Below the pieces are notes generated by a model. The model was not told the DNA's origin and did no database searches. It saw nothing but the letters and a program-made list of their open reading frames with translations. Both the position numbers and the translations under genes were made by a program. A stretch of DNA of 63,319 bases, the filler included, from Reclinomonas americana ATCC 50394 (lineage: Eukaryota), in assembly GCA_048213135.1 (NCBI GenBank). It is 3 parts of 2 records of this genome, joined end to end, with 100 filler letters (N's around TTAATTAATTAA, not from the genome) between each part and the next. Parts side by side here need not be neighbours in the genome. Positions count along the whole stretch, not along the records: positions 1 to 31,736 come from PS015197.1; positions 31,837 to 61,517 come from PS015197.1; 1 more part is not named here. One strand, 5' to 3'. Positions 5,648 to 62,720 of this stretch are shown here, one piece after another; within the stretch, counting starts at the first letter, position 1; each line of letters begins with the position of its first letter.

Positions 5648-6062
5648 TGTGGTTGGTTATGAGGGGATGTGGACGCAGTGGCAGCTCTCTCTCTCTCTCT
5701 CTCTCTCGCTCTCGGTCTTGTGTGTGTCGAAGCGTGTCCTATAGCACGGCGGACGATGCTCTTTCTTTTTTCCGGCAAAAAATGGGGTAATCAACAAGAC
5801 AGCTGACGATGAAGACCAATCTTAAAGAGCATGGGTACCAGTCTTGTTGGCAGCAAAAGCCTCTGATCCAGGCATGCTTAGCATTGCAATCACGTGTTCG
5901 CCAATTCTCATGAAGCAGTCACTGGTCCATTCGTACACAATACATGAGCCTCATTTCCCTGCGATCACCTACAGACCCGGATGCAGTCCTATAATGTGTT
6001 GATCGAGAAGAAAACTCGCGAGACTTGTTGGCGATCACCTGATTGTTATGATTATTATCATT

Positions 6063-8751
6063 CTATAATTCTATCGTAAAATGCCCACACGCCTCACGCA
6101 GCGTACGCATCATGTCGAGCACCTCCGGCGCCGTCGGTCTCTTCGATTGCAAACTCATGCATCGCATGCCGAGCTCAAACATCGGTTCGGCGATGCGCGG
6201 CGTCCACTCAGCTCCTCCATCCACCAACTCCATAACGTGCAACGAGGCTGGCGAGTCGTCCCATTGCACAGACCACTCGCCGACTGTGACCACCGATTTG
6301 CCAGTGACCAGCTGCACCAGCACCATACCCATGCTGTACACGTCGTGCCTGGGTTGTGGAGTTCGCACGCGCATCGCCAGTGGGTCCATGTAGTCGAGGG
6401 TACCGGCGGCGGTGGTCGTCTGCGACAGGAGAGACACTGAGAGAGAGAGAGAGAGAGAGGAAAGGGAAAGGAGAAGAGAGCCAACAAACCTTGCCACCGG
6501 AGATCGATCGCGCGATGCCAAAGTCACCGAGACACGGCTCCAGACGGTGGTCGAGAAGCACGTTAGAGGGCTTGATGTCGCGGTGCACCACTTCATTCTG
6601 CGAGGAAGACGGAAAACGTTGAACTTGCATGCAACACAACTCGCGGAATCGAAAGGGCAAGGAGGCATCGGGGCGCAAGGAACAACGAGAAAAGAGAGAC
6701 AGGGTAAACCAAGAGAAAACTTCAACTGAACTGAGCAAAGTCACCCACATCGCACAAACCTTGTGCAAGAACACGACAGCCTCGGCCAGTCCGAGACCAA
6801 TCTGCACACGCTGCACCACAGAGAGTGGTTCTCGGCCGGCTCGAGGCAGCAGTAACAGGTCCTCGAGGTTGAGAACTCTGTGTACTTGCAAAGTGAGACG
6901 ATGATGGAGAAGGAAAGAGAGATATTGGATACGCACTGCAGGGCCTTGTACACGAGACAGCGCGCCTTGTCGTCGCCCACCGAGTACCCGACAAGAGGCA
7001 CAAGGCGACGGTCACGCAGGCGTCCGAGGGTGGCGACCTACGACGCGAGTGAGGAGAAAGAGAGAGAGAGAGATGAAACAGAACAGGAAGAGTGATAGAC
7101 CTCGCTCTCAAACGACTCCATCGTCCATGGCGCATCGGGGTCGAGCACCTTGATGGCCACGTAAGACTCGCGAAGGTAGCAAATGTACACGGCGCCCTGG
7201 CCGCCTTCGCCGACCTTGAGACGGGGGGAGAAAGAGTCGGTGGCGTGCATGATCTCGGACCACTCGAAGCGCTGCACCGCCACGTCGACTGTTCCAACCA
7301 CGTGAGCCAATGAGCATCGAATGCACGGGAGGAACACCACAGACCTTGTGCAAGGAGAAGACCCTGTTGCAGCTGCGAGATGAATTGATCCTTGTCCTGG
7401 AGCTGCTGTCGCACAGTCGTCAATTGAGCAGCGTACTCGTCCCTGTCGCGCAGAGCGCCAGTCAACTGCAGCGCGATTCGATCCCGGTCGGCCTGCAATT
7501 GGGCATTCTCTTGCTCAACCTCAGCAACTACACGCTGCCAGCGCGTATTGGCTCGCTGCAGGTGGTCACTCTTGTGCTCCTCTGCGTCCTTGTCACGACG
7601 CAAATCGGCGTTGGTTCGCAACAGCTCGGCATTCCTCTGCTCCACTGCTGTCATGCCTTTCTGCAGTTCGGCATTTTTGAGCTCCTCTTCCTCCTTGCCG
7701 CGTTGCAGCTCGGCATGCTTGTGTTCAGCCACGGCCTTGCCCTGCTGAAGCTCCGCGATGGTGTTCCGCAGTTCGGCATTCTTGCGCTCCTCTGCCTGCT
7801 TGAGTTGCAGTAGCTCCGCATTGACTCTCTCGTGTTCGCGATGCTCGGCGCTCCGTTCACGCCGCAGCTGGTCTTGCTCGTGCCGCGCTACGGCAAGATC
7901 GCGCTGAAGTTGGGCATTCAACGCGACCAGGTGCGCCATGGCGACATCATCAACCGCCTGCACAGCAGTGTATTCAACAAGCAAGAACAAGCAAGCAGGG
8001 AAACACACAGTGAGCAAACCTGGCGCGCTTGCACTGCATGCCAAGGAGGAGTGTGAGCCGACAGAGCAGTAAAATCAACAGTGACAAACAGGAGGGAGAG
8101 ACCGCACCTACTGATGGCGGCGGAGGCTGTGAAGCGAGACGGTCAAGCAAATCAGCGACTTGCTGCTTACCTTTGTCACGTGCTTGCTGAGTTGCTGTCT
8201 TGCCCTTCCTGTCCACCATCGGAATGAGTTCGGGGAAGCGAGTGGCGAGGAGTTCCACCACTGGTTCGCGTCCGTTCATCGCGGCAAGATGCAACGCCGA
8301 GGACTGGGGATTGAGAGCCTGATCATTGGAGACCGCCCGCACCATCTCCAGCGGGCATCGTCGCTCGTCGGCCAGCAACCACTCCACCACATGCACACGC
8401 CCATTGGTGGCAGCCGCCATCAGCGGTGTCAACCCAGCGTCTGTGACCATTCTTGCCAAGTGCGACCCAACACCACTCTCCTCCCACAAGAACTCCAACA
8501 CAGAGAGATGTCCTTTGTAGGCTGCACAGTGAAATGCCGAGGCACCTCGATCCATCTCCTCACTCTTCAGCAGAGTGCGTGCGCCCTCACGCGCCACCAG
8601 TTCGCGCAGGGAGTCCTGTTCACCATCCGCCCCCATCTGGAAGGCTTTCTTGCGCGGTGGCTGAGGAGGAGAGCTGCCGGAACGCGAACAGAGAACAGTG
8701 AGACATGAGGGGAAGAGACGGATGAATGCGTTCTGCCCACCCGAACCTCAT
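6063..8751 (-). CDS. Ankyrin-repeat / long coiled-coil / Ser-Thr kinase (IRAK/RLK-Pelle-like), copy 2, multi-exon
   Basis: Same exon plan as copy 1, including the ATGAG|GT first exon and the 14-nt phase-switch exon. FEWSEIMHATDSFSPRLKVGEGGQGAVY, HRDIKPSN, DFG, AGTLDYMDP. Heptad region 7350-7957. Stop TAG at 6063-6065. Confidence 0.92.
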
Positions 8752-10771: not shown

Positions 10772-11475
10772 TGGGGAGGAGAGCGGGGAAGAGAGGGCGA
10801 GAAAGAGGTGGGTGTAGTTTTGCGTGAATGATGAGGTGTTTTTGTAAAGGAGGATCCGAGGATGTTTAGCGCGACACGAGGGACAGAGGCCTTGGGGGCA
10901 GTCTCGAGATCGGTGGGGTGGTGAGATTGTGCGTCTCTTCCTCGGCTTCCGAAGAGGTTGCTGCTCTGTCGGGTCTGCGGATACCGCTGTACTTCCTATC
11001 GGCTCCTTCGCAGCGGGCGCGGTTGGGTACAGGGGTTGTGGATTTCAGCTGCATCGCGATATCGAGACGCTCATTGTGGCTCTTCCACTGTGTCCCTCGA
11101 GGTTGAATGCTGCCGTGATGCAGCTAGCTGTTCATGTGCTTTGTTGTACCCTGTGTGGAGTTGTTGTCCATCATCACCTCAGCACCCAGCTTCGCCTGAT
11201 CCATGTTCTCTCCGCAAGAGAGAGAGATTCAAAACAATGGACATGCATTGCTGGTCATGGAGAACAATCGCAGTTGACGATGCACCCAACTTTGCCCAGT
11301 TCTCTGACACTCCCTCTCTCCTTCTTCCTCCTCCTCCTCCAGGCCCTTCATGCATCACGACTTGTCACCTTTTCATCTTGCTGTTCGGATCAACGAATTC
11401 TCTGTCACTCTCTTCGTTTCTTGCATCACGCAGCGCGCGTGTGTGTGTGCGAAACAACAACCAAGACACACAAAA

Positions 11476-14400
11476 ATGGCCGCTCGCCGTCCTCCACCTC
11501 CTCGCCCTCACTCAACAACGACAACAACTCCTTCGCTGCCAATGTCTGCCTCTTCTCCGTGCGACGACGAGAAAGCAGACATGATGCTCGTCGACAGCAA
11601 GCAGCATGTGACGACGATGATGATGATGATGCATTCCGCCTCTCCCTTCAGCAGCATCAACGATGATGATGATGATGATGATGAGATGAAGAAGAAGAGC
11701 GCATTGGGATCGTCTTCTCATCGTGGTGNNNNNNNNNNNNNNNNNNNNNNNNNNNNNNNNNNNNNNNNNNNNNNNNNNNNNNNNNNNNNNNNNNNNNNNN
11801 NNNNNNNNNNNNNNNNNNNNNNNNNNNNNNNNNNNNNNNNNNNNNNNNNNNNNNNNNNNNNNNNNNNNNNNNNNNNNNNNNNNNNNNNNNNNNNNNNNNN
11901 NNNNNNNNNNNNNNNNNNNNNNNNNNNNNNNNNNNNNNNNNNNNNNNNNNNNNNNNNNNNNNNNNNNNNNNNNNNNNNNNNNNNNNNNNNNNNNNNNNNN
12001 NNNNNNNNNNNNNNNNNNNNNNNNNNNNNNNNNNNNNNNNNNNNNNNNNNNNNNNNNNNNNNNNNNNNNNNNNNNNNNNNNNNNNNNNNNNNNNNNNNNN
12101 NNNNNNNNNNNNNNNNNNNNNNNNNNNNNNNNNNNNNNNNNNNNNNNNNNNNNNNNNNNNNNNNNNNNNNNNNNNNNNNNNNNNNNNNNNNNNNNNNNNN
12201 NNNNNNNNNNNNNNNNNNNNNNNNNNNNNNNNNNNNNNNNNNNNNNNNNNNNNNNNNNNNNNNNNNNNNNNNNNNNNNNNNNNNNNNNNNNNNNNNNNNN
12301 NNNNNNNNNNNNNNNNNNNNNNNNNNNNNNNNNNNNNNNNNNNNNNNNNNNNNNNNNNNNNNNNNNNNNNNNNNNNNNNNNNNNNNNNNNNNNNNNNNNN
12401 NNNNNNNNNNNNNNNNNNNNNNNNNNNNNNNNNGTGATTGTGTGTCATCCCAAGATTAGCATGTATCTCACTGAATTCTCTCTCTCTATCTCTCTTTCCA
12501 TGATTGCACAGCAACGCGCGAGGAGGCCGCGAGTCGACTCGTCTCAGGTGGATCACAGCGAGGACTTGCTTGCACGTGATTCAGTTGAGACATCGGTCCG
12601 CAAGCGTTCTCTGGAGGTGAGCTCCGATGTGGCATGCGTCTCACTTTGCCTCTCGCTCGTGCATCACAGTCGACACCTGATGTTTCGTACATTCTCTGCA
12701 GGCGAATGCATCCAGCGATGATGAGATTGCACCGCCGAAAAAGAAGAAGGTTTGGATTCTCTGCTGCTGACATTGTTGTGCTTGTTCATCGTTCTGCATA
12801 TGGGTTCTTTGTGTCAGTGATGCATGTTGTGATTCACAGCGTGGCAAGACTCGAGCTGCGAAGAAGCCAGAGGAGTTGAGCGCAGACGAGAAGCTGCTGC
12901 TGAACAAGCTGCTCGTTTCGTGTGCATGCTCTTTCTGTCATCATTGCGATCCACTTTGCTCCTCCTCTCCTCGATGCACTCACCATTCTTACTATGGCTC
13001 TCGCAGCGATGCAATCGGAAGGGGATTCTGGTGAAGGCATTCGGGTTGATGGCACCGATCGTCCAAGGGTCTACGGTCATCCACCATCAGAGTGTTCTCT
13101 TTGATATTGCCTGTGGCGATCGCGGGGTTCCATTGTCGGAGCCGGGTCGCTCGTCGTCTGCAGTCAAGTGTGCATTTGGCAAGAAGCTCGGCATGACTGC
13201 CAAAGACTCACGCGGCTCAACACCCAAGTCAGTGGAGGGTGTGCTCCGGCGAGTGGGCCACTACATCGAGGTGAGCTAGCATGTGTGCCTGTGAATGACC
13301 GTGACATGTGAACCAACATGCAGATGATTGCACTGTGCAGATGAGCCAGCTCAGTGGCTCGGCTCTGGTGGATGCTGTCGATAGTCCACTGATTGTTGTG
13401 GATGAGCGCGGATATTCGGAGGTGCATTGTTTTGCATGATCTTCAGTGTCTGTTGTGATAAATGTCAGCTGACTTACGTTCACTCGGCTTGTATGTGACA
13501 GGAATCGTGGAACACATGGCCTCTTCATCATAAAACCAAGAAAGATCTTCTTCAGCCGTTCGTCACACAGGCCGTGAAAGCGATGCGCGAGTGCGGTGGT
13601 CTCATGACTGCTCTGCTTCGAAACCATCACCTCACCGAAGCCGGGATAGCACGCGCCGTCACGTGGTGCCGATCGAAAGGTCTGCAATCTCATACCGCTG
13701 TTGGTGTTGCTTGCACTGGTGTTGACCAGCACCGCGCAGAGTATGGCGATGTGAAGATGGAGGTGAAGAAGGAGGAGGAAAATGACGGAGAGGGTAATGT
13801 CGTCAAGTTCGAAGACGATGACATCAAGGTATGCAGCAATTGTGTACGAGCAACAAAAGCTGCGGGCGCGCTTGTCTTCGTGGACCATCGATATCTTGTG
13901 CGTTCACGCAGGCGGATGTAGGCCGTGACGATGACGGAGAAACAAAGCCGAGCAAGGTACGGCGATGCCCGATGTTTGTGGATAGTTGGTGAGGCAGGTG
14001 TTGATTGTGGATGTTGGATGGGGTATGCACTTGCAGCGCGTCAAGTGTGGTCGCCGTGTGCCGGATGCGGATTTGAACAAGGACGAGCAGATGGTGCTGG
14101 ACAGACTGCATGTTGCGTATGCGTGGCCACAACATCTCAGCAAGGCAGAGTGATTGACTCTGCCATGTGGCTGCCTGTCATAACACCTGCGCGTGTGTGC
14201 GTAAATGTGTGCGAACAGCGATACAAGAAGAAGAAGATACTGGTGATGGCATTCGGCATCATGGCTCCTATTGTGAAGCAATCCGCAGTCTGGCATCATC
14301 AGCGCGTTCTGTTTGAACTCGCATGCACGGAGTGTGGCATCCCTTCGTCAGGAGCTGGCTCTCCGTCATCAGCAGTAATGGAAGCATTCGGCAAGACTCT

Positions 14401-39637: not shown

Positions 39638-40639
39638 GATGCGGACGATACAAGTTGGCGGACACGCGCGTGGGACAGAAAGAATGGCCATGGCTGATCA
39701 GCGTGATATAGGGGGTACCGTCTGCTTCTGCATCATCTGCTGCAGTTCACTTGTCCCTCCCAGCACGTGCGTGGAAAGTTGTCTCGGACTTCGATTCCAT
39801 TTCTTTCTTGTCACTTACAAATCCCCGGAATTTCNNNNNNNNNNNNNNNNNNNNNNNNNNNNNNNNNNNNNNNNNNNNNNNNNNNNNNNNNNNNNNNNNN
39901 NNNNNNNNNNNNNNNNNNNNNNNNNNNNNNNNNNNNNNNNNNNNNNNNNNNNNNNNNNNNNNNNNNNNNNNNNNNNNNNNNNNNNNNNNNNNNNNNNNNN
40001 NNNNNNNNNNNNNNNNNNNNNNNNNNNNNNNNNNNNNNNNNNNNNNNNNNNNNNNNNNNNNNNNNNNNNNNNNNNNNNNNNNNNNNNNNNNNNNNNNNNN
40101 NNNNNNNNNNNNNNNNNNNNNNNNNNNNNNNNNNNNNNNNNNNNNNNNNNNNNNNNNNNNNNNNNNNNNNNNNNNNNNNNNNNNNNNNNNNNNNNNNNNN
40201 NNNNNNNNNNNNNNNNNNNNNNNNNNNNNNNNNNNNNNNNNNNNNNNNNNNNNNNNNNNNNNNNNNNNNNNNNNNNNNNNNNNNNNNNNNNNNNNNNNNN
40301 NNNNNNNNNNNNNNNNNNNNNNNNNNNNNNNNNNNNNNNNNNNNNNNNNNNNNNNNNNNNNNNNNNNNNNNNNNNNNNNNNNNNNNNNNNNNNNNNNNNN
40401 NNNNNNNNNNNNNNNNNNNNNNNNNNNNNNNNNNNNNNNNNNNNNNNNNNNNNNNNNNNNNNNNNNNNNNNNNNNNNNNNNNNNNNNNNNNNNNNNNNNN
40501 NNNNNNNNNNNNNNNNNNNNNNNNNNNNNNNNNNNNNNNNNNNNNNNNNNNNNNNNNNNNATAGGAGGAGAAGAGAGAGGGAGAGGTAGAAAGAAGAGGG
40601 AGAAGAAAAGAATGAAATAAGAGGGCGAGTATCCACTAA

Positions 40640-43600
40640 CCGCATCATTCCCGGACCGCCAAATCCAGGAGGTGGCGGCATGTCGGGGTAGAAGGGTGGT
40701 GGTGGCATATCTCGACGGCCTGCGAAGACAGCGCATGAGCCGCAGACATCAAACACGTCGCACTTTCAAAAATGTAGCCCACCTGGTAGTGACGGCGCCG
40801 GCAGCACACCACCAGCACCACTGGTACCGCCCGGCGGCATGCCCATGGAGGGCGGCGGTGGTCCGCCGTTGCCGCCCATGGACGCCGGTGGCATGAGAGG
40901 GTAGCCCATGCCGGGTGGGGGTGGTGGGTAACGCATGGGTGGTGGCTGCTGCTGTTGCTGTTGCTGCTGCTGTTGTTGTTGTCGCATGTTGTCGTTGGGG
41001 GCGGAGAGGTGCTCGCGGCGGAATTTTTCCGAGCGGAGCATCTTTTGCAGGGCGGCGTATTGCTTGAAGGTTTGTGAGTTGAAGCCGTAGTTGAAGAAGT
41101 CGGAGATGTCCACGCCTAGTAAGGGGAAGGTATGAGGCAAAGGGGGGGAAGGGAGAAGGGGGGATAAGGGGAGAGGAGAGAGAAGGAAAAGAGAAGGAAA
41201 AGAGAGAGAAGGAACAGATACACAAACGGAAAGAGAGAGAGAGAGAGATCAGAGGAGAATGACGCAAAGGGGGGAAATGGGGAAGGGAAGGGGGTGAAAG
41301 AAAATAGAGAGAGAGGAGAGAGAAGGAACACATACACAAACGGAAAGAGAGAGATGCAGAGAAGTAGAATGAGGCAAAGGGAGCGATGGAAAAGAGAGAG
41401 GAGAAAGGACGGAATGAAAGAAGGAACAGATACGCAAACAGAAAGAGAGCGAGATGTGGAGAAGTAGAATGAGGCAAATGGGGAAAGGCAAGGGAGCGAA
41501 GAAAAAGGTAGAAGAGAGAGAGAGGGAACAGATACACAAACACAGCAAGCGAGTGAGAGATGAAGAGAAAATGTGGAAGGGAAGGGGGTTGAAAGAAAAT
41601 AGAGAGGAGAGAGAGAGGGAACAGATACACACAAACACAGCAAGCGAGTGAGAGATGAATATAAGTAAAATGTGGAAGGGACGGGGGTGAAAGAAAATCG
41701 AGAGGAGAGAAGGAAAAGAGATAGAGAAGGAACATATACACAAACGGAAAGAGAGAGATGTAGAGAAGTAGAATGAGGCAAAGGAAGGAAGCGATATAAA
41801 AAGAGAGAGGAGAAAGGACGGAATGGAGAGAGAAGGAACCCCACAAACAGAAAGAGAGAGTGAGAGATGAAGAGAAGAAGAATGCGGCAAAGGGGGGAAA
41901 TAGGGAAGAGAAGGGGGTGAAAGAAATAGAGAGCGAAGAGACGACGATGAAAAAGTTGAATGGAGAGAGAATGAACCCACAACAGAAAGAGAGAGAGAGA
42001 GGTAGAAAAAGGAGGGGAAGAAAAACAACAACTGAAAGTTGGGAATNNNNNNNNNNNNNNNNNNNNNNNNNNNNNNNNNNNNNNNNNNNNNNNNNNNNNN
42101 NNNNNNNNNNNNNNNNNNNNNNNNNNNNNNNNNNNNNNNNNNNNNNNNNNNNNNNNNNNNNNNNNNNNNNNNNNNNNNNNNNNNNNNNNNNNNNNNNNNN
42201 NNNNNNNNNNNNNNNNNNNNNNNNNNNNNNNNNNNNNNNAGAGAGAGAGAGAGAGAGCGGAACCAAGACCCTCTGCAAAACGATCGAGAGACTGTATGAG
42301 AAGGATGAGAGCGAGGGAAACAAGACAAGGGAAAGCGCAGAGGAAAGCCCACAGTGGTAAATCAGAAAGAGAGAGAACGATTGTGCGAGAGATTGTATGA
42401 GAAGTGGAAAGAAAGCAAGAGGCGAGGAATACAATGGCGAGCACATGAAGGGATACCAGACTTCGCACGGAAAGTGTGTGTGAGAGAGAGGGAGAGACAG
42501 AGAGAGACCAGACAATGCATGCCAAGATAGAGAGAGAACATTTGTGCGATAGACAAGATGGAAAGGGAGAGAAGCAAGAGTCGAGCAATACAACGGAGAG
42601 CACACGGAGGGATACCAGATTCCGCACGGTGAGAGAGAGAGAAAGAGAAACCAGACACTGCATGAGAAGGAGAAAGAGAGCGAAGGAAACAATGCTTAGA
42701 ATAGAAACGAGACAGATTGTGTAAGAATGAGCAAGAAGCACGCGGAGCGGGAGTCGGGGAATGGGAGAGACCCTGACGAGCAGACAGCCCTCATGTAGAC
42801 TCGGCGCGCTATTGCACCCACAACAAACCTTTCATCACTCTCATACTCCTCCTCCCCGTCCGTTACTGCTTGTACACCACCAGCAAGCGGATCCCCCTCA
42901 TTATCATCGTCACCGATTGCATTCCCATCGCCAGCATCAGCACTCCCATCAGCCTTGCCAGCACTTCAGACAAGACAGTCAATGACCCGAAGGTTAGCAA
43001 TGCGTGGTGCGAGGATTGTGAGAGACCTGTGCTCGTCAAAGCCCATGGCAGCGTCCACAGCGGCAGTGGATCCAGCTGGGAAGGGAGACGGGGTGAGTGG
43101 AGAGAGACAAGTAAAGACAGTCGAAAGAGAGAAAGAAGGAGAGAGAGAGAGAGAGAAATGGAGAGAGAAAGAGCGAGAGAGAGATAGAAAGAGAGAGAGA
43201 GAGAGGGAGAGCGAGAGCGAGAGCGACACAATGAGATGGAGAGAGGGAAAGGGAGAGTCATGGAGAGAGAAACAGAGAGAGAGAGAGAAAGAGCGAGACT
43301 AAAGAGAAAGAGCGAGACAAAGAGAGAGAGAGAAAGAGAGAGTCATGGAGAGAGAAACAGAGAGACAAGAATGAGAGAGAAAGAGAGAACGAGAGAAGAA
43401 AGAGAACCAAAGACAATCAAGCGTAAGGAGCAGCGAAAGAGAATGACTGGAGCGCGCACGAAAGGAACTTCCGTGCTTGCAGTGATCGCGCAAACACTGC
43501 CAATCTGTGCGTGGGAGTGAAACAACGACTATCGAGCTTCATCAAAGATGCATTCTCTCTCTCTCTCTGCGAGTGTGCGTGTGCGTGAGAGAGCAAGAGA

Positions 43601-43683
43601 GAGTCAAACGAAATGCAAGTCGAGTGCGCGCGCGTGTGAGACAGTGTGTGCAAGGAAATGCAAGTGATGTTGTAACCAAAACC

Positions 43684-43754
<71 letters not shown>

Positions 43755-44538
43755 CTACTACNNNNNNNNNNNNNNNNNNNNNNNNNNNNNNNNNNNNNNN
43801 NNNNNNNNNNNNNNNNNNNNNNNNNNNNNNNNNNNNNNNNNNNNNNNNNNNNNNNNNNNNNNNNNNNNNNNNNNNNNNNNNNNNNNNNNNNNNNNNNNNN
43901 NNNNNNNNNNNNNNNNNNNNNNNNNNNNNNNNNNNNNNNNNNNNNNNNNNNNNNNNNNNNNNNNNNNNNNNNNNNNNNNNNNNNNNNNNNNNNNNNNNNN
44001 NNNNNNNNNNNNNNNNNNNNNNNNNNNNNNNNNNNNNNNNNNNNNNNNNNNNNNNNNNNNNNNNNNNNNNNNNNNNNNNNNNNNNNNNNNNNNNNNNNNN
44101 NNNNNNNNNNNNNNNNNNNNNNNNNNNNNNNNNNNNNNNNNNNNNNNNNNNNNNNNNNNNNNNNNNNNNNNNNNNNNNNNNNNNNNNNNNNNNNNNNNNN
44201 NNNNNNNNNNNNNNNNNNNNNNNNNNNNNNNNNNNNNNNNNNNNNNNNNNNNNNNNNNNNNNNNNNNNNNNNNNNNNNNNNNNNNNNNNNNNNNNNNNNN
44301 NNNNNNNNNNNNNNNNNNNNNNNNNNNNNNNNNNNNNNNNNNNNNNNNNNNNNNNNNNNNNNNNNNNNNNNNNNNNNNNNNNNNNNNNNNNNNNNNNNNN
44401 NNNNNNNNNNNNNNNNNNNNNNNNNNNNNNNNNNNNNNNNNNNNNNNAATATTTCACCCCATTTTTTTCGTTTTCTGCGTTGCGCGCGCGCGTACCAGAG
44501 CCAAAGAGCGCGGCGTAATCGTCGTCATCGTCGGCCAT
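40640..44538 (-). CDS. FIP1: Pre-mRNA 3'-end processing factor Fip1 (3' end in gap)
   Basis: Acidic N-terminus MADDDDDYAALFG and acidic exons at 42830-43076. Fip1 motif GVDISDFFNYGFNSQTFKQY, followed by a Pro/Gly/Gln-rich tail. Confidence 0.85.
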
Positions 44539-44910
44539 TTGGCGCTCGCTCACTTGCACAAAAAAGAATACGTAGGACAGATGCGCGTCCTGTGCGTGTC
44601 CTGTGCGCGCGCAACTCAAATTTGTTTTTTGTGTGTCGCGATGGTGAGCGCGCGCAGAGAAAGAGAGAGAGAGAGGAAAAGAGAGAGGAAAGGGGGGAAA
44701 TTGCGCTGTGGGTGAAAGAAGAGAAAGAGAGTAGTGAAATTGAGTTGTTTTTTTCTCTCGCAGACAGGTGTTCACTGTGAGAGTGAGTGTGTGTGTGTGT
44801 GCGTGAGACAGAGAGGCAGAGACAGAGGGAATGCGTGCTGTGCCTGCGAGAAGAAGAAAAGCGCGCACAATTTTGAGTTGTTTTTCTGTCACTGACTGTT
44901 ACTCATTGTG

Positions 44911-44971
<61 letters not shown>

Positions 44972-45012
44972 AGAGAGAGAGAGAGAGACGAGNNNNNNNN
45001 NNNNNNNNNNNN

Positions 45013-45800
45013 AAAGGGCGATGTGAGACAAGGGCGGGGAAGCAGAATGGGAAGACTTGGATGTCATAGTTGGAAGGGAGCGAGAGGATGCGCCTACTCT
45101 TTCTCTTGCCCTTTGTTCTCTACCCGTGTCGTGGAAGGAGAGAGGAAGGGGTGGGCGAAGAGGAGAAGACAAGGGCGGGGAAGAAGAATGGGAAGACTTG
45201 GATGTCCGGGAGGGCGAGGATGCGCTCTCTCTTTCTCTTGTCCTTTGGTCTCTTATCCTAGTGGTGGGCGAAGACAAGGAAAGGGGCGTAATAGAATGGG
45301 AAGACATGGATGTCATAGTTGGGGGAGCGAGAGGATGCGCCTTCTCGTTCCGTTGTCTTTGTTCTCTACCCGTGTCTTGAAGGGAGGGAGAAGAGGAGGG
45401 CGATCTGAGACAAGGGAGGGCAGAATGCGCTCTCGCTTTCTCTTGTCCTTTGGTCTCTACTCTTGTCGGGGAAGAAGAGAGGAAGGGGTGGGCATGTCAT
45501 TGTTTCAAGGGAGCGAGAGGTTGCGCCTTCTCCCGTCTCGTGGGCAGAGGGAGAAGAGGAGGGCGATCTGAGACAAGGGAAGGCGAGGATTCGTGCTCTC
45601 TTCCTCTTGTCTTTTGTTCTCTACTCATGTCGTGGAAGGAGGGAGGAAGGGGTGGGTCTCTTGTCCTTTGTTCTCTACCCGTGTCGTGGAAGGAGAGAGG
45701 AAGGGGTGGGTGGGTGAAGAGGATGGCGAACGAAGACAAGGGAGGGCGAGAATGCGCCTTCTCTTTTTCTTGTCCTTTGGTCTCTTACCCTTGTCGGGGA
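45013..45800. repeat. Degenerate minisatellite (~120-140 bp units), probably intronic in the AP-1 sigma gene
   Basis: Recurring GACAAGGG..GAATGGGAAGAC..TCTTGTCCTTTG..CTACCCGTGTCGTGGAAGG blocks. Confidence 0.75.
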
Positions 45801-46158
45801 AGGGGAGGGCGTGTGCGTGTATGTGTGTGTGAGAGAGAGAGAGACGCACGAGCTATTGTCTCTCTTCGGCGACCTTATGCACTCCCTTCTGTCTGTTCTC
45901 TGGTGTTCCCTCCTCCTCCGTTTCTTCTGCGTTTTGCTTTCTCTCTGCGAGAGAGAGAGACCCACGAGCTATTTACTCTCTGCGGCGATATTGTGCACTC
46001 CCTCCTCTCTTTTATCTGGTGCCCTCTTTTCTTCGTATCCTTTGTGTGCTACATTATCTGCCAAACCTGCAGTGAATTTCTCTCTTTCTCATTCTAATAT
46101 CCCTTTCCCTTGCCCCCTCACCCCCCTTCTCCCCTTATTCCCCATCCCCATCCCACAG

Positions 46159-46502
46159 CTACGCCAGCCTCTTCTTCATCTTCTGCGTCGACAAGAGCGA
46201 CAACGAGCTGGTGTCGCTGGAGCTGATCCACCACCTCGTCGAGGTACTAGACCGGTACTTTGGCAACGTGTGCGAGCTCGACCTCATCTTCAACTTCCAC
46301 AAGGCGTACTACATTATCGATGAAGTTGCGGGGGCGTGGAAGGAGGGTGTGGGGGAAGGTATCTTTGGCCTTTGCTCATTTGCGACCGCAGATGTTCCTC
46401 GCCGGCGAAGTACAAGAGAGCTCCAAGAAGAGCATTCTGCGTGCCGTTGCCGCGCAAGATCAACTGATGGACAGCTTCTCCGACCCGAAGACCGAGACGT
46501 GA
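46159..46502 (+). CDS. AP1S: Adaptor complex AP-1 sigma subunit, last two exons (5' exons not visible)
   Basis: [64 protein letters not shown]. Intron 46325-46391. Confidence 0.9.
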
Positions 46503-47352
46503 TGGGAGTGGTGGGAGAGGAAAAAATGTCCGCCAGGGTGGCACGGATGCGGAGGTGTTGAATGTACCGATCCGTAGTCAAAGGAGGCTAAAGGTGAATG
46601 GAAAGGTCTCCCTTACGTGGTGAGTGGATTGAAAGGAGGAGAGGGCATGACCAACACAAGAAGAGATGACAACAGCAACAACAACAACAACTTTACTAAT
46701 CCAAACAGCAAGACAGCAGCATGAGGATCACCATCTTGAGTGAGCACCAGAAACTCAGACATCACGAAAAAAAGCAAGAGCAGACAAGCAAATCGCGAAG
46801 AAGGCTGAAAGGAAAGCACAACGTTCCCAGAGAAATTAGAGAAGAAAGGAAGGCGACCCTGATCATGACAAGAAGAGAAGAAAAGAAAGAGAGTGAAAGA
46901 CGTCCGCTGCGCATGCGCTTGCGCGCGCCGCTGCGCCTAATTGCAAAAAGAAAAAAAGAGTAATATTAATGGAAATGCATCAAGGTGATGCTACCATGAT
47001 GTTCTCTTGTACTCTGTGTGCAGTTGTTGTCCATCATCATCTCAACACCGCCTTTCGTAATCCATTTTCTCCCGGAGAGGTCCTGAAAACAAAGAGACAT
47101 GCATTGCGCATGCTGGTCATGGAGAACAATCGCAGTTCATGATACCCAAGGATGCCCAGTTCTTGGACATCCCTCTCCTCTCTCCTTCTTTCCCTCTCAC
47201 CACACTCCTCCTCCAGGCCCTCCTCACATCACGACTTGTCACCTTTTCATCTTGCTGTTCGGATCAACGAACCTTCATTCTCTTGACTCTCTTCGTTTCT
47301 TGCATCACGCAGTGCGCGCGTGTGTGCGAAACAACAGCAAAGACACACACAA

Positions 47353-50300
47353 ATGGCCTCTCATCCTCCTCCCCCTCCACCGCGCCCTCAATCAACAACA
47401 ACAACAACTACTCCTTCACTGCCAATGTCTGCCTCTTCTCCGTGCGACGACGAGAAAGCAGACATGATGCTCATCGACAGCAAGCAGCATGTGACGACGA
47501 TGATGATGCATTCCTCCTCTCCCTTCATCAACAGCAACGGCAACGATGATGATGAGAAGAAGAAGAAGAAGAGCGCATCGGGGTCGTCTGCTCATCGTGG
47601 TGTGCCTGCGATGGCGAGGCGACGAGTGCCTTTCTCCTCGTCCTCTTCCACGTCTGTCACCACCACCAGTGTCACTGCCAAGAAAGGTNNNNNNNNNNNN
47701 NNNNNNNNNNNNNNNNNNNNNNNNNNNNNNNNNNNNNNNNNNNNNNNNNNNNNNNNNNNTGCGTCTCTCTCTTGCTGTCTTTGGTATTCTCGCATCAAGT
47801 GTTGTCTCACCTGAGCAGTGCATGCACACAGCTGCTGACCAGGTGCACATGGAACACACAGCGATGGAAGGCATCGTCGAGGTACAGTGATTGTGTGTGT
47901 CATCCCAAGATGAGCATGTCTCTCACTGAATTCTCTCTGTCTCTCTCTTTCCATGTTTGCACAGCAACGTGCGAGGAGGCCGCGAGTTGACTCGTCTCTG
48001 GTGGATCACAGTGAGGACCTGCCTGCACGTGACTCAGAAGAGACATCGCCCCGCAAGCGATCTCTGGAGGTGAGCTCTGATGCGGCATGCGTCTCACTTT
48101 GCCTCTCGCTCGTGCATCACAGTCGAGACACATGATGTTTTCTCTTCACTTCTCCACAGGTGGATGCATCCAGCGATGAAGAGCTTGCACCGCCGAAGAA
48201 AAAGAAGAAGGTGTGGATTCTCTGACATTGACATTGTTGTGCTTGTTCATCGATCTGCACATGGGTTCCATGTGTCAATGATGCTTGTTGTGGATTCACA
48301 GCGTGCGAGGAATCGAGTTGCGAAAGAGCCAGAGGAGTTGAGCGCAGACGAGCAGCTGCTACTGAACAAGCTGCTTGTTGCGTGTGCATGCTCCATCTGT
48401 CATCATTGCAACCCAGCTCTCTCCTCCTTCTCCTTGTTGCACTCACCATTCTATCTGTGCCACTCGCAGCGATCCGATCGGAAGAGGATCCTGGTGAAGG
48501 CATTCGGCCTGATGGCACCGATCGTCCAAGGGTCTACGGTCGTCCACCACCAGAGTGCTCTCTTTGAGATTGCCTGTGATGAGTGCAGGATTCCGTCGTC
48601 GGAGCGGGGTCGCACGTCGTCTGCAGTCAAGTGTGCATTTGGCAAGAAACTTGGCGTGAGTGCCAGTGATTCACGCAGCAAAACGCCCAAGTCAATGGAG
48701 GGTGTGCTCCAGTGCGTGAGCAACTTCATCGAGGTGAGCGAACATACGTGGTGACGACCGTGGCATGTGAACCAATATGTAGACGATTGCACTGTGCAGA
48801 TGAGCCAGCTCAGTGGCGAGGCTCTGGCGGATGCTGTTGAGAGACCGCTGATCGTTGTCGATGAGCGAGGGTATTCGGAGGTGCATTGTTTGCATGATCT
48901 TCAGTGGCTGTTGTGATTATGTCGACTGACTTTCGTTCACTCGGCTTGCTTGTTACAGGAATCTTGGAAGAGACTGCCTCCTCATCAAAACCCCAGGAAA
49001 GACCAGCTTCAGCCGTTTGTCAAGCAGGTCATGGATGCATTGCTCGAGTCTGAAGGTCTCATAACTGCTCTGCTTCGAGACTGCCACCTCTCTGAGGTTG
49101 AGATTTCACGCGCCGTCAAGTGGTGCCAATCGAAAGGTCTGCATTCGCGTGCGGCTGTTGGCGTTGCTCTTGCATTGGTGTTTATCGGCAGCACGCAGAA
49201 TACGGGGATGTGAAGATGGTGGTGAAGAAGGCGGAGGAAAATGACGGAGAGGACGATGACATCAAGGTATGCAGCAATAGTGTACGAGCAACAAAAGCTG
49301 CGGGCGAGCAAGTCTTCGTGGAGTTGGTCGACCATTAATATCTTGTGCGTTCATAGGCGGATGCAGGCCGTGACGATGACGGAGAAAGAAAGCCGAGCAA
49401 GGTACGACGATGCCAAGTGTCTGTGCATAGTTGGTGAGGCAGGTGTTCATTGTGTGTTGTTTGGGCTGTGCATTTGCAGCGCGACAAGCGTGGTCGTCGT
49501 GTATTCGATGCTATCATGACCAGGGACGAGCAGATGGTGCTGGACAGACTGCATGTTGCGTGTGCGTGTCCAATGCACCTCAGCAAGGCGGATTGATTGA
49601 CTCTTCCATGTCATAACACCTGGCGCGCGTGTGTGTGTGAATAGCGATGCAACAGGAAGAAGATTCTGGTGACGGCATTCGGCATCATGGCTCCTATTGT
49701 GAAGCAATCCGCAGTCTGGCATCATCAGCGCGGTCTTTTTGAACTCGCCTGCACGGAGTGTGGCATTCCTTCGTCAGGAGCTGGCTCTCCGTCGTCCTCA
49801 GTCATGGACTCATTCGGCAAGAGTCTTGGTAGTGTCGTCCACTATTCACGCCAAGAGACGCGTAAGTCAGTTGAAGGAGTGCTCCAGAGCATGAGCACCT
49901 TCATCAAGGTGAGCATCTGCCTCTGCTGCCCATCACGCGCGGCTAGAAAGTGAGCCAATATCGATGCATGTGCAACTCTGCAGAAGAGTGAACTGCGCGG
50001 TGCTGCTCTGGTGGATGCCATTGAGAGACCATTGATTGTGGTGGATGAACGTGGCCATTCTGAGGTGCATTGACTGTCCTTTGTGCGCTCTGTGCATATC
50101 CTGGTGTGTGTCGACTCATGTGCTTCTTCCACAACGTCGGTTGTGCTGCAGGAATCATGGGCGATGATGGAGAAGAGACATAGACGGAACATGGGTGACC
50201 GTCTCCTGCCGCTCGTCGCCCGAGCCGCGCAGGCCCTTCGCGAGTGTCCTGGCTTTCAGGCGTCGCTGATTCGAGACGGCTGCCTCTCCGAGGCGGAGAT

Positions 50301-53300
50301 CGCACGGGCCGTCGAGTGGTGCAGTGAGAGAGGTTTGATGGTATAGGGTGCGTTCTACTGTGTGCATTGTGTTAGGACTGACGAGCAAGATGCAGCTCTA
50401 CTGGAGGCGACGGTGCTGAAGAAAGAAGAGATGAAGGAGGAGGAGAAGGAGGATGGGTCGAGGGTCGACTGGGAAGACGATGAAGACGACGACATGGATG
50501 AGGCTGACAGGAGGAGGAAGGTATGACCATGGATGATTGGACAGGTGCACGTTGTGGCAACATCTCATCTGTACATGCACAGCGACGAGGGAGTGGTTCT
50601 GTGACGCTGAGCCACGGCGGACAACTGGTGCTGGCAAGGCTGCTTGTTGCGTGTGTATCGCAATCTTGTCATTCTTTGGTAATCGTCTGGCTGATTGAGT
50701 GTTCATCAATTCACTCATATGTTGCATGCGAGAGCAGTGCTGCAACAAGATGAAGTTACTGGTGACGGCGTTTGGCATCATGGCTCCGATGGTTATGGGA
50801 TCCACAGTCCGCCATCATCAGCGCGTTCTTGTCGAACTCGCCTGCAAGGAGTGCGACATTTCTTCATCAAAAGCAGACTGTCTTTTGTCGGAAGTCGTGA
50901 GCTCGTTCGGCAGTAGCCTTGGCGACTTCGTCAGGACAGCACGCAGCAAGACGCCCAAGTCGGTTGAGGGAGTTCTCCAGAGCATGAGCAACTTTATCGA
51001 AGTGAGCATCGTCCATCTCGCACGACTGATTCAATGATCAGCGCTAACATATGTGCCACTATGCAGAAGAGCGAACTGCGCGGTGCTGCCCTGGTGGATG
51101 CCATTGAGAGACCACTGATTGCGGTGGATGAACGTGGTCATTCGGAGGTGTGGTTGCCTTTCACTCTGTGTACGATATTCGTGATCGCTGGTGGTTTCTC
51201 ATTCTTTGTTTTCCGGAATTCTTATGTTAGGAGTCGTCAAAATTGCCGGGACTGCAGCGCTATAAGCAGAGTCCTCTTCTGTTGTTCTTGACACGGGCTG
51301 TGGATGCTCTCCACAACTGTCCTGGCCTGCTGACCACTCTACTTCGAGGCGGTTCTCTTTCCGAGGTGGCGATTGCACGGGCCGCAGAGTGGTGCAGAGG
51401 AAGAGGTTTGGCTATGTGACGGTTGATAGATAGATGCAGTATGTACAAGCGCTGACAATTAGGCACAGTTCTGAGAGAGATGGAGAATGTGAAGGAGGAG
51501 AAGATGGAGGATGAGCAGGATGAGGATTTCATCGAGAAAGAGCGCGACGACGAGAAGCGAAGTGGGAAAAGCAAGGTACATCATTCAGTAAGCTGCAGGA
51601 TGCTTGAGCATCCCAAATTACTGGACTTTCGTTCCACAGCGGAGCAGGGTTGGTCATTTGAAGCTGAGTGTCAATGAGCAACTGACGCTGGCGAAACTGC
51701 TTGTTGCGTGTTGTCACACGTCTCCAATTGCAAATATGTTATCAAGAAATCCTCACTTGAATCTGCTCATCGCATATGTGAACAGGGCGGCAACAGGAAG
51801 AGGATGCTGGTGAAGGCATTCGGTCTCATGGCACCCCTGGCCATGCCGTCCACAGTCCTCCACCACCAGCGCCTTCTCTTGCAGCTTGCCTGTGGCGAAT
51901 GCGGAATACCCTCGAAGGGACCTGGCAGCCCGTCATCCGTTATCATGCCTGCATTCGGCAAGAGTCTTGCCAAGAGTGCCGGCGCGGCACGCTGCAAGAC
52001 GCCCAAGTCAGTGGAGGGTGTGCTTGAGAGCGTGAGCAACTTCATCGAGGTACGTGTCCCTGTGTTGACATTCAACAGTGACGTGCCTGTCAGCTGACCT
52101 GCCTTCCATTGTGTGCATGTGGAATCTTCAGAAAAGCGGTCTTCGAGGAGTCGAGCTGGTAGATGCTGTCGAGCGACCGCTGATTGTAATTGACGAACGC
52201 GGTTACTCGGAGGCATGTGGACTTGTGATTGTGTGCATTGATGTGCATCAATGATGTTGTCTCACTTTCTCGATTCTCGGGTGGCAGGAATTAGCCAAGT
52301 TGACGCAGATAAGCAGCAGGCAAGATCCTCTCCTGCCATTCGTCACTCAAGCCATGCAGGCTCTTCGCAACTTCCCTGACCTGCTTACCACTCTGCTTCG
52401 AGACGGTTGCGTCTCTGAGGAAGATATGGAGCGTGCCGCCGAGTGGTGCAGTGAACGAGGTTCGACTGCGTGCCATTCTTTGCTGCGCAGTGTGTCCGTG
52501 TTCTGACAAGCAAGGGACAGCTCTGAGGGAGATGGAGATGGTGAAGAAAGAGGAGAAGAGAGAGGAGGACGAGCAGGCGGATGATGATGACGGCAGCGAG
52601 AATGAGGACGACGACGGGAAGGGAAGCAGGAGACACAAGGTACGCCCGTCACTGCCTTCTATGAGACGTGAATGATGTGTGCATTTCACAACTGTATGGC
52701 TCTCAACCACAGCGCCACAAGAGTGGCCCTGCGAAGTTGAGCGTCAACGAGCAACTGATGCTCCTGAGACTACATGTTGCGTGTTGCCGTTGCCTCGCTG
52801 CTCGGCTCCTCGCTTCCACTCTCCCAACAAACATGCGAACAGGCATGCGACAGGAAGATGGTGCTGGTGAAGGCATTTGGCCTCATGGCACCTGTAGTCA
52901 TGGCATCCACAGTCCGCCATCATCAGCGCCTTCTCTTCCAGCTTGCCTGTGACGAATGTGGCATGCCGTCAGTGGGACCAGGCAGCCCTTCATTCGCAGT
53001 CAAATCTGCATTTGGCAAGAGTCTTGCCGATAGTGCCGGCACGACACGCAAAAGGACTCCAAAGTCAATTGAGGGTGTGCTGGCGAGCATGAGCCACTTC
53101 ATCGAGGTGAGTGTCAGTATGCTATTTCCGTGTTTCGTCTGATCGTGACGAACTGATGACTGACTTGAGTTCAATATATGCGGGATCATCAGAAGAGTGG
53201 CCTTCGAGGAGCTGCGCTGCTGGATGCTGTCGAGAGACCACTGATTGTGATTGACGAACATGGCTACTCCGAGGCATGTGCACAGCTGTTTGTGCTCTTG

Positions 53301-53740
53301 CGTATCGATGTAAGCCTACTCACAATGCTTCTTCTCGCGATCGGGTGGCAGGAATCGACAAAGTCGTTGAGGGGAGGTCCTCCAAGTTCTCTTCTGCCAT
53401 TTGTCACACAGGCCATGCATCTGCTCCATAACTGTCCTGGTCTGCTGGCTACACTGATTCGTGACAGGTGCCTTTCGACAGCGGAGATTGAGCGTGCTGG
53501 TGTGTGCTCCAAATGCACCAGTCTGGGAGCTTCTGTTGTTGTTTGCATTGCGTGCCACAATTAGCACTGACTCGCATGATGCAGTGCATGGTGACGAGAA
53601 GCCGCTGAAGATGGAGCTGGTGAAGAAAGAGGAGGAGGAGGAGGAGGAGGAGGAGGAGGAGGAGGAGGAGGAGGAGGAGGAGGAGGAGGAGGAGGAGGAG
53701 GAGGAGGAGGAGGAGGAGGAGGAGGACGGAGGAGGAGGAC
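47353..53740 (+). CDS. Unknown five-repeat protein family, copy D (stop codon in gap)
   Basis: Same N-terminus. Repeats start near 48302, 49479, 50583, 51640 and 52713. Ends in a long (GAG)n poly-Glu run. Confidence 0.85.
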
Positions 53741-61517: not shown

Positions 61518-61561
61518 NNNNNNNNNNNNNNNNNNNNNNNNNNNNNNNNNNNNNNNNNNNN

Positions 61562-61573
61562 TTAATTAATTAA
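61562..61573. other. Artificial scaffold-joining spacer
   Basis: TTAATTAATTAA within N runs. Confidence 0.9.
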
Positions 61574-61700
61574 NNNNNNNNNNNNNNNNNNNNNNNNNNN
61601 NNNNNNNNNNNNNNNNNGCCCCGTTCCACGGTAACGAGGCGACAAACAAGACGAACACATACGTCACTCACTTCTTATCCACTCCACCAACGCTGAGTGC

Positions 61701-62013: not shown

Positions 62014-62720
62014 TAATCAGTCTCTTCCCGCCGCGCCGCAGCATCACCGGTCTCCGCATCTGCCGACGCCGACCCCGGCCCCCGCGTAATCATGATCCCG
62101 GCGGGCGCATCGCTCGCCATTGACGACGGCGACGCCATGGGCCGTTCAATGACCGCGCGCACTGCGAGTGAGAGATGAGCTCACTCCCACCCTCCCTCTC
62201 TCCTTCTCCACACAGGTGCGCCACCAAACCATCGGGAATACTCGGCAGCGTACGCCCACCGGTCTTGGTGATGCCTTCGCGCTTCAGCAGACCCGGTCGG
62301 TCCACCACGAATGAGATGACCGGATTCTAGAGAGGTTGGTGAGCACCCAGTTAAGAATGGAGCATGCGTCGACAAGAGACGCAACAAGAGACAATGTAGA
62401 GTGCGTGTTGTCTGCGCATGAGGCGAAAGAGTGAGCAACTTGAAAGGCAAGCAACGCACAACTTCCAATCAAACAACGCACGTCGGTGTTCCATCGTGTC
62501 CAAGTTGAGGCGCTGCTGCATGAGCTTGTTGTAGTCGTTCATCATTTGCAGCAGCTGGCCGTACTGCACGGTGCCGACAATGCTGAAATCCGCATCCACA
62601 ACCGGATACACCGACATGCGGCTCTTGGCCAGCACCTCGGAGATGTCCAGCAATGTCGTCTCCGAGTACACGACGACGAGCTCCGTGCGCATCACGTCGC
62701 CGGCGGACAGGCTCAGATTC
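62014..62720 (-). CDS. CBS-domain protein fragment (possibly a CLC channel C-terminus)
   Basis: LSAGDVMRTELVVV..TLLDISEVL..VYPVVDADFSIVGTVQYGQLL is a typical CBS motif. The downstream exons are low complexity. The CLC assignment is a guess. Confidence 0.65.

Follow-up and report, generated by a model that had tools for sequence, protein, structure and literature searches.

In C2H2 zinc fingers and in homeodomains, the residues that contact bases follow the spacing i, i+3, i+4, i+7 (positions -1, 2, 3 and 6 of the finger and positions 47, 50, 51 and 54 of the homeodomain). Four residues per C2H2 finger contact DNA, and positive selection on these residues is reported for duplicated KRAB-ZNF genes and for PRDM9 (PMC3126818). 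In the HNWD genes (het-d/het-e) of Podospora anserina, four codon positions per WD repeat, on a protein interaction surface, are under positive diversifying selection (PMC1805685). Here we describe four paralogous genes, A to D, from a 63,319-nucleotide stretch of Reclinomonas americana ATCC 50394 DNA (GenBank assembly GCA_048213135.1), referred to as the window, in which three parts of two records are joined end to end. Their proteins consist of tandem modules, each encoded by five exons (a to e), and every complete module carries within exon b a hypervariable segment of nine residues that structure models place in the C-terminal half of a helix. At sites of this segment nonsynonymous change is in real, site-specific excess, and diversifying selection on a predicted, presumably exposed helix face is a well-founded conclusion for a multi-module family that matches none described. 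Tandem recognition units in which a few contact residues evolve fast are a known phenomenon; what is new here is, apparently, the domain.

The family resembles KRAB-ZNF genes and PRDM9 in that tandem units, clustered paralogs and a conserved scaffold go together with selection at four sites of a helix that have the spacing i, i+3, i+4, i+7. This is a likeness of behaviour (residues 63, 66, 67 and 70 of exon b are selected) and not of ancestry. Unlike C2H2 fingers, the modules have no C-x2-4-C...H-x3-5-H motif, no zf-C2H2 match and no KRAB or SET domain, their unit comprises about 185-200 residues and an acidic linker where a finger has 28 residues, it is encoded by five exons, a T-P-K-S turn and a further helix come after the variable one, and their DNA binding is putative. 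HNWD proteins likewise form a multi-copy family of repeated units with four selected positions per unit, but they are built of WD40 beta-propeller blades with a NACHT domain, and their repeats undergo concerted evolution and vary in number, whereas the present modules are predicted to be helical with no recognised fold, number five in A and in D, group by position and have no NACHT domain. The idea of repeated units with a few specificity residues each is shared with TALE, PPR and PUF proteins, in which units of 33-36 residues read one base each within one continuous superhelix; the modules are instead large separate domains on flexible acidic linkers, and membership of these families was rejected on unit length and on the lack of a Pfam match. 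UBF-type HMG-box arrays place several basic domains in a row with acidic stretches and an acidic C-terminal tail, a layout that the charges measured here resemble. No HMG-box match was obtained by sequence (Pfam) or by fold (Foldseek), and we know of no HMG boxes with a hypervariable helix face. The modules also have a conserved His-His...Cys-x2-Cys arrangement in common with KDZ-associated CxC clusters, although they score below every threshold for these.

A six-frame scan found 17 sites of the form T[PR]KS..G[VIL]L, all on the + strand, in four blocks and about 1.05-1.2 kb apart, and these mark 17 complete modules: A1-A5, B1-B4, C3-C5 and D1-D5. The segment that precedes each site corresponds to residues 63-71 of exon b and is located as follows.

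13193-13219, 14405-14431, 15494-15520, 16540-16566 and 17589-17615, + strand: segments of A1 to A5
28179-28205, 29373-29399, 30478-30504 and 31528-31554, + strand: segments of gene B
34023-34049, 34954-34980 and 36002-36028, + strand: segments of gene C
48656-48682, 49831-49857, 50924-50950, 51972-51998 and 53029-53055, + strand: segments of gene D

The sequence-only reading that drew attention to these modules had listed the nine-residue strings, and all 17 were reproduced letter for letter and are distinct. Its further description was accurate: position 3 is Ala or Val and position 7 is Arg with the codon CGC in 17/17, the base before this codon is A in every case (codons TCA, GCA, ATA and ACA), and the flanks match F[GSNI]xxL[GAR] and T[PR]KS[VIM][EDG]GVL. 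Of 152 nine-codon windows in the module core, none varies more between equivalent modules of paralogs than the segment, which has a mean amino-acid difference fraction of 0.57 vs 0.22 in all other columns. Across positions 1 to 9 the fractions are 0.90, 0.52, 0.14, 0.81, 0.76, 0.48, 0.00, 0.90 and 0.57, and many of the variable codons differ by two or three bases. The 68 residues at positions 1, 4, 5 and 8 (S 9, K 7, D 7, N 7, T 6, G 5, R 4 and Q 4 among them) are mainly polar or small, with few large hydrophobics. An 18th copy, C2, is incomplete, running from 32945 directly after a run of N, and has the atypical flank TPRSVEEGL; position 3 of its segment would be Gly, provided that the register holds.

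Selection on the segment was assessed pairwise and by likelihood. The Nei-Gojobori ratio of nonsynonymous to synonymous change (dN/dS), taken over 21 pairs of equivalent modules, exceeds 1 for the nine codons in 14 pairs, is undefined in four (dS = 0, dN > 0) and falls below 1 in three (B3-D3, C3-D3 and A5-C5), while in the rest of exon b it is 0.11-0.63. For the likelihood tests a codon model of the GY type (F1x4) was used on the topology and branch lengths from IQ-TREE, with sums over internal states; it reproduced the IQ-TREE log-likelihood of -4113.006. Synonymous (alpha) and nonsynonymous (beta) rates are each expressed relative to the gene-wide synonymous rate. With both rates free, the pooled likelihood-ratio tests (LRT) gave the following.

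All nine codons: alpha 0.45, beta 1.95, LRT 22.1, p = 2.6e-6
Positions 1, 2, 4, 5, 8 and 9: alpha 1.05, beta 2.97, LRT 7.6, p = 0.006
Positions 1, 4, 5, 8 and 9: alpha 1.42, beta 3.27, LRT 3.7, p = 0.053

Single-site tests with the gene-wide synonymous rate as reference placed beta above 1 in 15 of 160 codons, and six of these were significant.

Exon b residue 21: beta 6.0
Exon b residue 63 (segment position 1): beta 5.0
Exon b residue 66 (segment position 4): beta 3.5
Exon b residue 67 (segment position 5): beta 20
Exon b residue 70 (segment position 8): beta 3.5
Exon d residue 2 (trimmed alignment): beta 3.5

A paralog-only test, run on five small trees of equivalent modules with the deep branches left out, gave one-sided p < 0.0002 for each of exon-b residues 21, 63, 66, 67 and 70, all of which pass a Bonferroni correction for 160 sites, and p = 0.004 for exon-d residue 2; pooled, positions 1, 4, 5 and 8 have a beta of 5 (LRT 59.6). 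Over the whole-tree and paralog-only tests the nonsynonymous rate at these four positions is 3.5 to 30 times the gene-wide synonymous rate. An excess of nonsynonymous change had been predicted from the sequence at positions 1, 4, 5, 8 and 9; it was borne out at the first four, whereas for position 9 it was borderline (one-sided p = 0.05 at a beta of 1.75); for position 2 the single-site test gave no significant excess. Two selected sites lie beyond those predicted, exon-b residue 21 (13067-13069 in A1), in the loop that connects the first two predicted helices, and exon-d residue 2.

The proposal that synonymous sites next to the replaced codons stay fixed stands for the conserved codons 3, 6 and 7, which have only about 0.07-0.1 of the synonymous rate averaged over the gene; at the variable codons themselves that rate is about average (alpha 1.05). 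Codons 68-69 of exon b (13208-13213 in A1) have a synonymous rate of about 0 (LRT 18.5 vs the gene average), and the four bases A-CGC, made up of the third base of position 6 and the Arg codon, are constant in the 17 modules although the residue at position 6 may be Ser, Ala, Ile or Thr. A constraint at the nucleotide level within the hypervariable segment is suggested by this. Constant use of CGC was rejected as a unique signal, as five of about 50 conserved degenerate columns are likewise codon-invariant, and it is notable only in combination with the invariant preceding A.

AlphaFold2 was run on exon b with an alignment of the 16 complete paralogous copies from this genome, and on A3, the one module in which the reading frame stays open across its two introns. 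The exon-b model (predicted local distance difference test score, pLDDT, 78.4; predicted template-modelling score 0.63) has helices at residues 4-18, 21-26, 28-39, 53-71 and 76-87, and the read-through model has identical helices in exon b at pLDDT 72-87. The segment had been supposed to be helical and both models predict this; lying within helix 53-71, it forms the C-terminal half of that helix. The variable residues 1, 4, 5 and 8 have the one-face spacing i, i+3, i+4, i+7 that had been claimed for them: on a helical wheel they fall within about 100 degrees, positions 2 and 9 are at the edge of this arc, and positions 3, 6 and 7 are on the opposite side, aligned with the conserved F57 and L61. 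The strength of selection tracks the predicted helix face. Outside exon b the read-through module is of low confidence, with pLDDT below 50 in exons c and d; in exon d three short helices are predicted at pLDDT below 55.

The helix is followed by a short conserved turn.

13220-13231, + strand: T-P-K-S turn of A1 (residues 72-75), between predicted helices 53-71 and 76-87

In the 16 aligned copies of exon b, T, K and S are invariant and P nearly so; variants are TRKS in D2 and TPRS in the partial C2. The sequence T-P-K-S fits the proline-directed (CDK-type) kinase consensus, in its minimal and its full form (S/T-P-x-K/R), which would give five candidate kinase sites per protein, each right after the variable helix. 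In the His-His...Cys-x2-Cys arrangement of exon b, H27 and C36 are invariant and H26 and C39 occur in at least 90% of copies; Arg replaces the second Cys in A1. H26, H27, C36 and C39, together with Cys 2 of exon b, could form a metal site.

Self-comparison by BLAST delimits four paralogous blocks that are about 80-85% identical in exons and introns alike, and each corresponds to one of the genes.

About 12434-18237, + strand: block A
27412-31735, + strand: block B
32957-36718, + strand, plus an inverted piece at 31837-32457: block C
47887-53681, + strand: block D
12512-18244, + strand: gene A, with AG acceptors, GT/GC donors and all frames open
27389-31736, + strand: gene B, ATG at 27389 (MEDIVE), modules B1-B4
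31837-36654, + strand: gene C, stop at 36654 after ...DEDI, 5' part lost
47864-53740, + strand: gene D, ATG at 47864 (MEGIVE), modules D1-D5

The genes share a layout of an ATG exon, two more N-terminal exons, the second of which ends PPKKKK(K), and then five modules of five exons each; both full-length copies (A and D) have five modules. The ATG exon reads MEDIVE in B and MEGIVE in D and is masked in A by an N run (11729-12433). The two further N-terminal exons are at 12512-12616 and 12702-12749 in A (followed by A1-A5), 27494-27598 and 27683-27733 in B, and 47965-48069 and 48160-48210 in D. Over its whole length gene A is about 80-81% identical in nucleotides to B and D. It ends with a stop at 18244 after an acidic tail (...EEDI), and the poly-Glu tail of gene D enters an N run at 53741, its stop lying beyond the visible sequence. 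The exons of a module are as follows.

All modules: exon a, 21-25 residues, ...LSxNEQLMLxKLL
13007-13270, + strand: exon b of A1, exactly 88 residues (264 nt) as in every copy, with no indel
14219-14482, 15308-15571, 16354-16617 and 17403-17666, + strand: exon b of A2 to A5
27993-28256, 29187-29450, 30292-30555 and 31342-31605, + strand: exon b copies of gene B
33837-34100, 34768-35031 (5' part masked) and 35816-36079, + strand: exon b copies of gene C
48470-48733, 49645-49908, 50738-51001, 51786-52049 and 52843-53106, + strand: exon b copies of gene D
13341-13421, + strand: exon c of A1, 27 residues, KSELRGAALVDAIERPLIVVDERGxSE
All modules: exon d, 49-60 residues, ..LLPFVTQA..CPGLL.TLLRD.CLSEAEIARAVEWCSER
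13502-13679, + strand: exon d of A1, LLPFVTQA...CPGLL.TLLRD.CLSEAEIARAVEWC...
13740-13828, + strand: exon e of A1, an acidic linker that ends, as in other modules, in K/R
13912-13956: extra 15-codon exon of gene A, found between modules 1 and 2
16781, 17837, 35188, 36247, 52213 and 53274: examples of GC-AG introns (donor GCATG.) in modules 4 and 5

A module is thus about 185-200 residues long with a linker of 23-81 residues, and introns are 51-107 nt. Module cores are basic (net charge +3 to +12, isoelectric point 8.4-9.7), exon b being the most basic exon, the linkers have a net charge of -4 to -18, and the proteins carry KKKK(K)/KRK motifs and an acidic C-terminal tail. A GC donor follows exon c in all six readable copies of modules 4 and 5, and GT is used in the other modules. 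Exon c is the most conserved exon of the module (dN/dS 0.06-0.66). Outside the segment the codon model gave an omega of 0.375 and a kappa of 2.5; first and second exon positions diverge by 0.11-0.19, third positions by 0.17-0.37 and introns by 0.12-0.31. A suspicion from A4-D4 that introns are better conserved than exons did not hold generally across comparisons. On the basis of their open frames, shared exon structure, omega and pattern of exon and intron divergence, A to D are judged, as far as sequence can show, to be real genes under purifying selection outside the segment. In a tree, modules cluster by position and not by gene, classes 1, 2 and 3 with 96-100% support and classes 4 and 5 mixed (54-86%), and a five-module gene therefore existed before the duplications.

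The family had been taken for one without known relatives, and this held in Pfam, protein representatives, PDB sequences and Foldseek searches of PDB and BFVD. Pfam gave only noise at an expect value (E) <= 1 for six module open reading frames (ORFs) and no match for 16 copies of exon b or 15 of exon d; phmmer with the A3 module against 1.84 billion protein representatives gave no match at E <= 0.001, and an exon-b profile against the longer proteins of a 5.8-billion set gave none at E <= 0.1 among 8000 candidates scored. PDB sequence profiles of exons b and d returned noise only, as did Foldseek with the A3 read-through model, and Foldseek with the exon-b model found no match at E <= 0.001 in PDB or in BFVD. 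In bacterial and archaeal genomes, 42 pattern matches included no relatives. Module motif words were absent from the literature searched, and a search for similar systems led to unrelated families only. The lack of relatives partly reflects poor sampling, as nothing closely related to the source organism is represented in the protein set and the genome collections covered were bacterial and archaeal. Housekeeping genes of the window show this too: a POP1 exon reached at most 56% identity, in Agaricomycetes, with a sponge and Bonamia below that, and the best hits of an AP-sigma exon were spread over Plasmodium, Cryptosporidium, Vitrella, Chromera, Leishmania and dictyostelids, among others.

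Several known classes were tried. None of 16 exon-b copies matches the C2H2 model at E <= 5, and the conserved H26, H27, C36 and C39 have the reverse order and different spacing compared with the C2H2 motif. For a helix-turn-helix or homeodomain-like fold there was no Pfam or PDB sequence match with exon b or d, the exon-d model being of low confidence. NLR-type receptors were rejected, with no NACHT/NB-ARC or known repeat domain in the module ORFs (Pfam); the ankyrin repeats of the window belong to separate kinase genes on the - strand (1190-8747). KDZ-associated CxC clusters were rejected as well, CxC3 scoring 9.8 bits where 26.6 are required (E = 0.89) in one of six ORFs and being absent from all of 16 exon-b copies. 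In the ESM Atlas, the read-through module had look-alikes at 0.80-0.84, those at 0.84 being clusters with 12-41% CxC4 or CxC5 members, and scores under 0.9 are by the tool's own statement leads only; exon b alone had no usable look-alike there.

We propose that A to D encode lineage-restricted, nuclear-type proteins in which the selected helix face reads nucleic acid or chromatin, most likely DNA, and we put the probability of this full chain at roughly 0.45. It starts from the gene structure, the purifying selection on the scaffold and the positive selection at four sites, all of which are observed, and from a predicted helix; exposure, ligand contact, ligand identity and nuclear location are the steps that it adds. 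The genes would be expressed-type, intron-rich paralogs, each specifying five independently folded basic modules joined by acidic linkers. Exon b would form a small helical domain in which the C-terminal half of the long helix (63-71) is amphipathic: Ala/Val at position 3, the small or aliphatic residue at 6 and the invariant Arg at 7 would, with Phe57 and Leu61, pack or anchor the conserved side, and positions 1, 4, 5 and 8, with 2 and 9 at the edge, would be solvent-exposed on the opposite side and contact the ligand. The invariant Arg and the T-P-K-S turn may make backbone contacts, and the acidic linkers may modulate binding. After duplication of the five-module gene, selection would have repeatedly swapped the contact residues, giving each of the 17 modules its own specificity. 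Nucleic acid is favoured as the ligand on account of the basic modules, KKKK(K) motifs, acidic tail and linkers, the spacing like that of zinc fingers and homeodomains, and the small polar residues at the variable positions.

A number of points weigh against this proposal. The strongest selection tests borrow the gene-wide synonymous rate, and with a free synonymous rate the pooled p weakens to 0.006 for six positions and 0.053 for five; multi-base changes and gene conversion between paralogs, which are outside the model, can inflate beta; and all of the evidence comes from paralogs of one gapped assembly. The structure model is of medium confidence and derives from 16 paralogous rows of one genome, and given the low confidence of exons c and d the variable face may be packed against a different region of the module. 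Comparison with known structures gave no recognisable DNA-binding fold, the top PDB hit being the DNA-binding domain of ColE2 Rep at a non-significant E = 4.5 (probability 0.21). The spacing i, i+3, i+4, i+7 also fits a protein-protein helix interface, and histone chaperones or nucleolar proteins could show the same basic charge, KKKK motifs and acidic linkers. The modules are far larger than TALE, PPR or zinc-finger units, and a modular recognition code, for which the sequence-only reading saw a candidate, is speculation.

The main alternative, which we regard as possible but somewhat unlikely, is that the ligand is a protein. The genes would then form a recognition or adaptor family in genetic conflict or self/non-self discrimination, each module binding a different variable epitope of, for example, a selfish element, a parasite or host factor or a partner gene family. 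The selection evidence is equally strong under this explanation, the closest evolutionary analogue for focused selection in repeated units is HNWD of Podospora, the spacing is also that of contacts in helix-helix interfaces, and exon-b residue 21 and exon-d residue 2, both outside the helix, suggest a patch larger than a groove-reading helix; the failure to recognise a DNA-binding fold points the same way. However, the modules have no Pfam domain, and NACHT, WD, ANK, TPR, LRR, signalling and death domains are absent; their grouping by position leaves no concerted evolution of the repeats; large hydrophobic residues are scarce at the variable positions, most of which are occupied by small and polar ones; and basic modules, acidic linkers and KKKK motifs point to chromatin.

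Two further explanations dispense with a recognition surface or with selection. That the segment is an unconstrained exposed stretch drifting neutrally would be compatible with high entropy by itself, with dN/dS below 1 in three of 21 pairs and with p = 0.053 for five positions when alpha is free. It is very improbable, however, given that positions 1, 4, 5 and 8 change at 3.5-30 times the synonymous rate, significantly so after correction for 160 sites in the paralog-only test, that the local synonymous rate is normal (alpha 1.05 at the variable codons), that 76-90% of paralog pairs differ in amino acid at these positions vs 0.12-0.37 per base in introns and third positions, and that the conserved positions 3, 6 and 7 interleave with the variable ones. 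An artefact, whether a hot spot of hypermutation or templated conversion, mosaic conversion that homogenises the flanks, or errors in the assembly of paralogs, could draw on the gaps near the copies (N runs, two join linkers and the inverted piece that ends before the C2 segment), on the many codons with two- or three-base differences and on the poorly resolved 4/5 clade, which may reflect exchange between modules. Against it, all 17 segments lie in unbroken sequence with intact flanks, synonymous sites in the flanks are not homogenised (proportion of differences 0.15-0.41 over the remainder of exon b), the variable codons have an average synonymous rate, and the changes spare positions 3, 6 and 7 and follow a helical periodicity, unlike a DNA-level process; the paralogs are about 15-20% different throughout, introns included, which makes collapsed or chimeric copies unlikely. 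We consider an artefact to be the least probable explanation of all.

Parts of the locus are affected by the state of the assembly. The eukaryotic DNA of the window is interrupted by 22 runs of N, 6724 in total, and the joins at 31737-31836 and 61518-61617 each consist of 44 N, TTAATTAATTAA and a further 44 N, which is an all-frame-stop linker of the kind used for joining contigs. The first of these interrupts gene B in module 4, so that B and C are on different contigs; B4 has a complete segment all the same. In exon a of B2, at about 29015, TG stands where A2 and D2 use the acceptor AG, and splicing to the nearest upstream in-frame AG, at 28994, would shorten the intron to about 40 nt; gene B may be mis-spliced or decaying at this point. 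In gene C the last part of module 1 and the front half of module 2 are on the inverted piece (31837-32457, - strand), which ends just short of the expected C2 variable segment and is followed by a 487-N gap (32458-32944), downstream of which the second half of module 2 and C3-C5 are in forward orientation. This piece is probably a mis-oriented small contig, the alternative being a true inversion. Upstream regions of A, B and D are also duplicated (11144-11728, 26045-26451 and 47007-47607; 82-92% identity), and the duplication unit thus took in the 5' flank, which probably holds the promoter.

Between and beside the blocks lie unrelated genes.

19293-25306, - strand: POP1, a housekeeping gene between blocks
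40769-41248, - strand: Fip1, housekeeping
46076-46558, + strand: AP-complex sigma subunit, housekeeping
62354-62830, - strand: CBS-domain gene, housekeeping
1190-5650 and 6066-8747, - strand: two tandem paralogous ankyrin-plus-kinase genes

The ankyrin/protein-kinase pair are about 74-78% identical to each other in DNA. Short tandem or direct repeats with periods of about 110 bp occur at 4156-4597 and at 41156-41900, the latter inside long - strand ORFs beside the Fip1 exon. The gene scan of the window found no transposase gene near the modules, and Rfam no RNA family anywhere in the window. AT-rich isochores were rejected, the low-GC blocks (e.g. 38001-40000, 0.23) being long N runs scored as non-GC.

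If the helix face is a recognition surface, the family would represent an independent invention of the zinc-finger-array strategy, on a domain without detectable relatives and in a poorly sampled eukaryotic lineage. A bolder and unlikely extension is that the exon-b domain is a new class of sequence-specific nucleic-acid-binding domain in which positions 1, 4, 5 and 8 set the target, five domains on acidic linkers read composite sites, and the paralogs are moving apart in the targets that they choose, perhaps under an arms race against repeats or mobile DNA; were this true, it would be a protist counterpart of KRAB-ZNF and PRDM9 on an unrelated fold, with a learnable specificity rule. The 17 natural variants of one 88-residue domain provide a small, clean test set for relating four residues to specificity, and the family could point to an unrecognised genetic conflict in R. 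americana. Even with a protein ligand, the modules would be a clear-cut example of positive selection concentrated on a few sites of an orphan domain.

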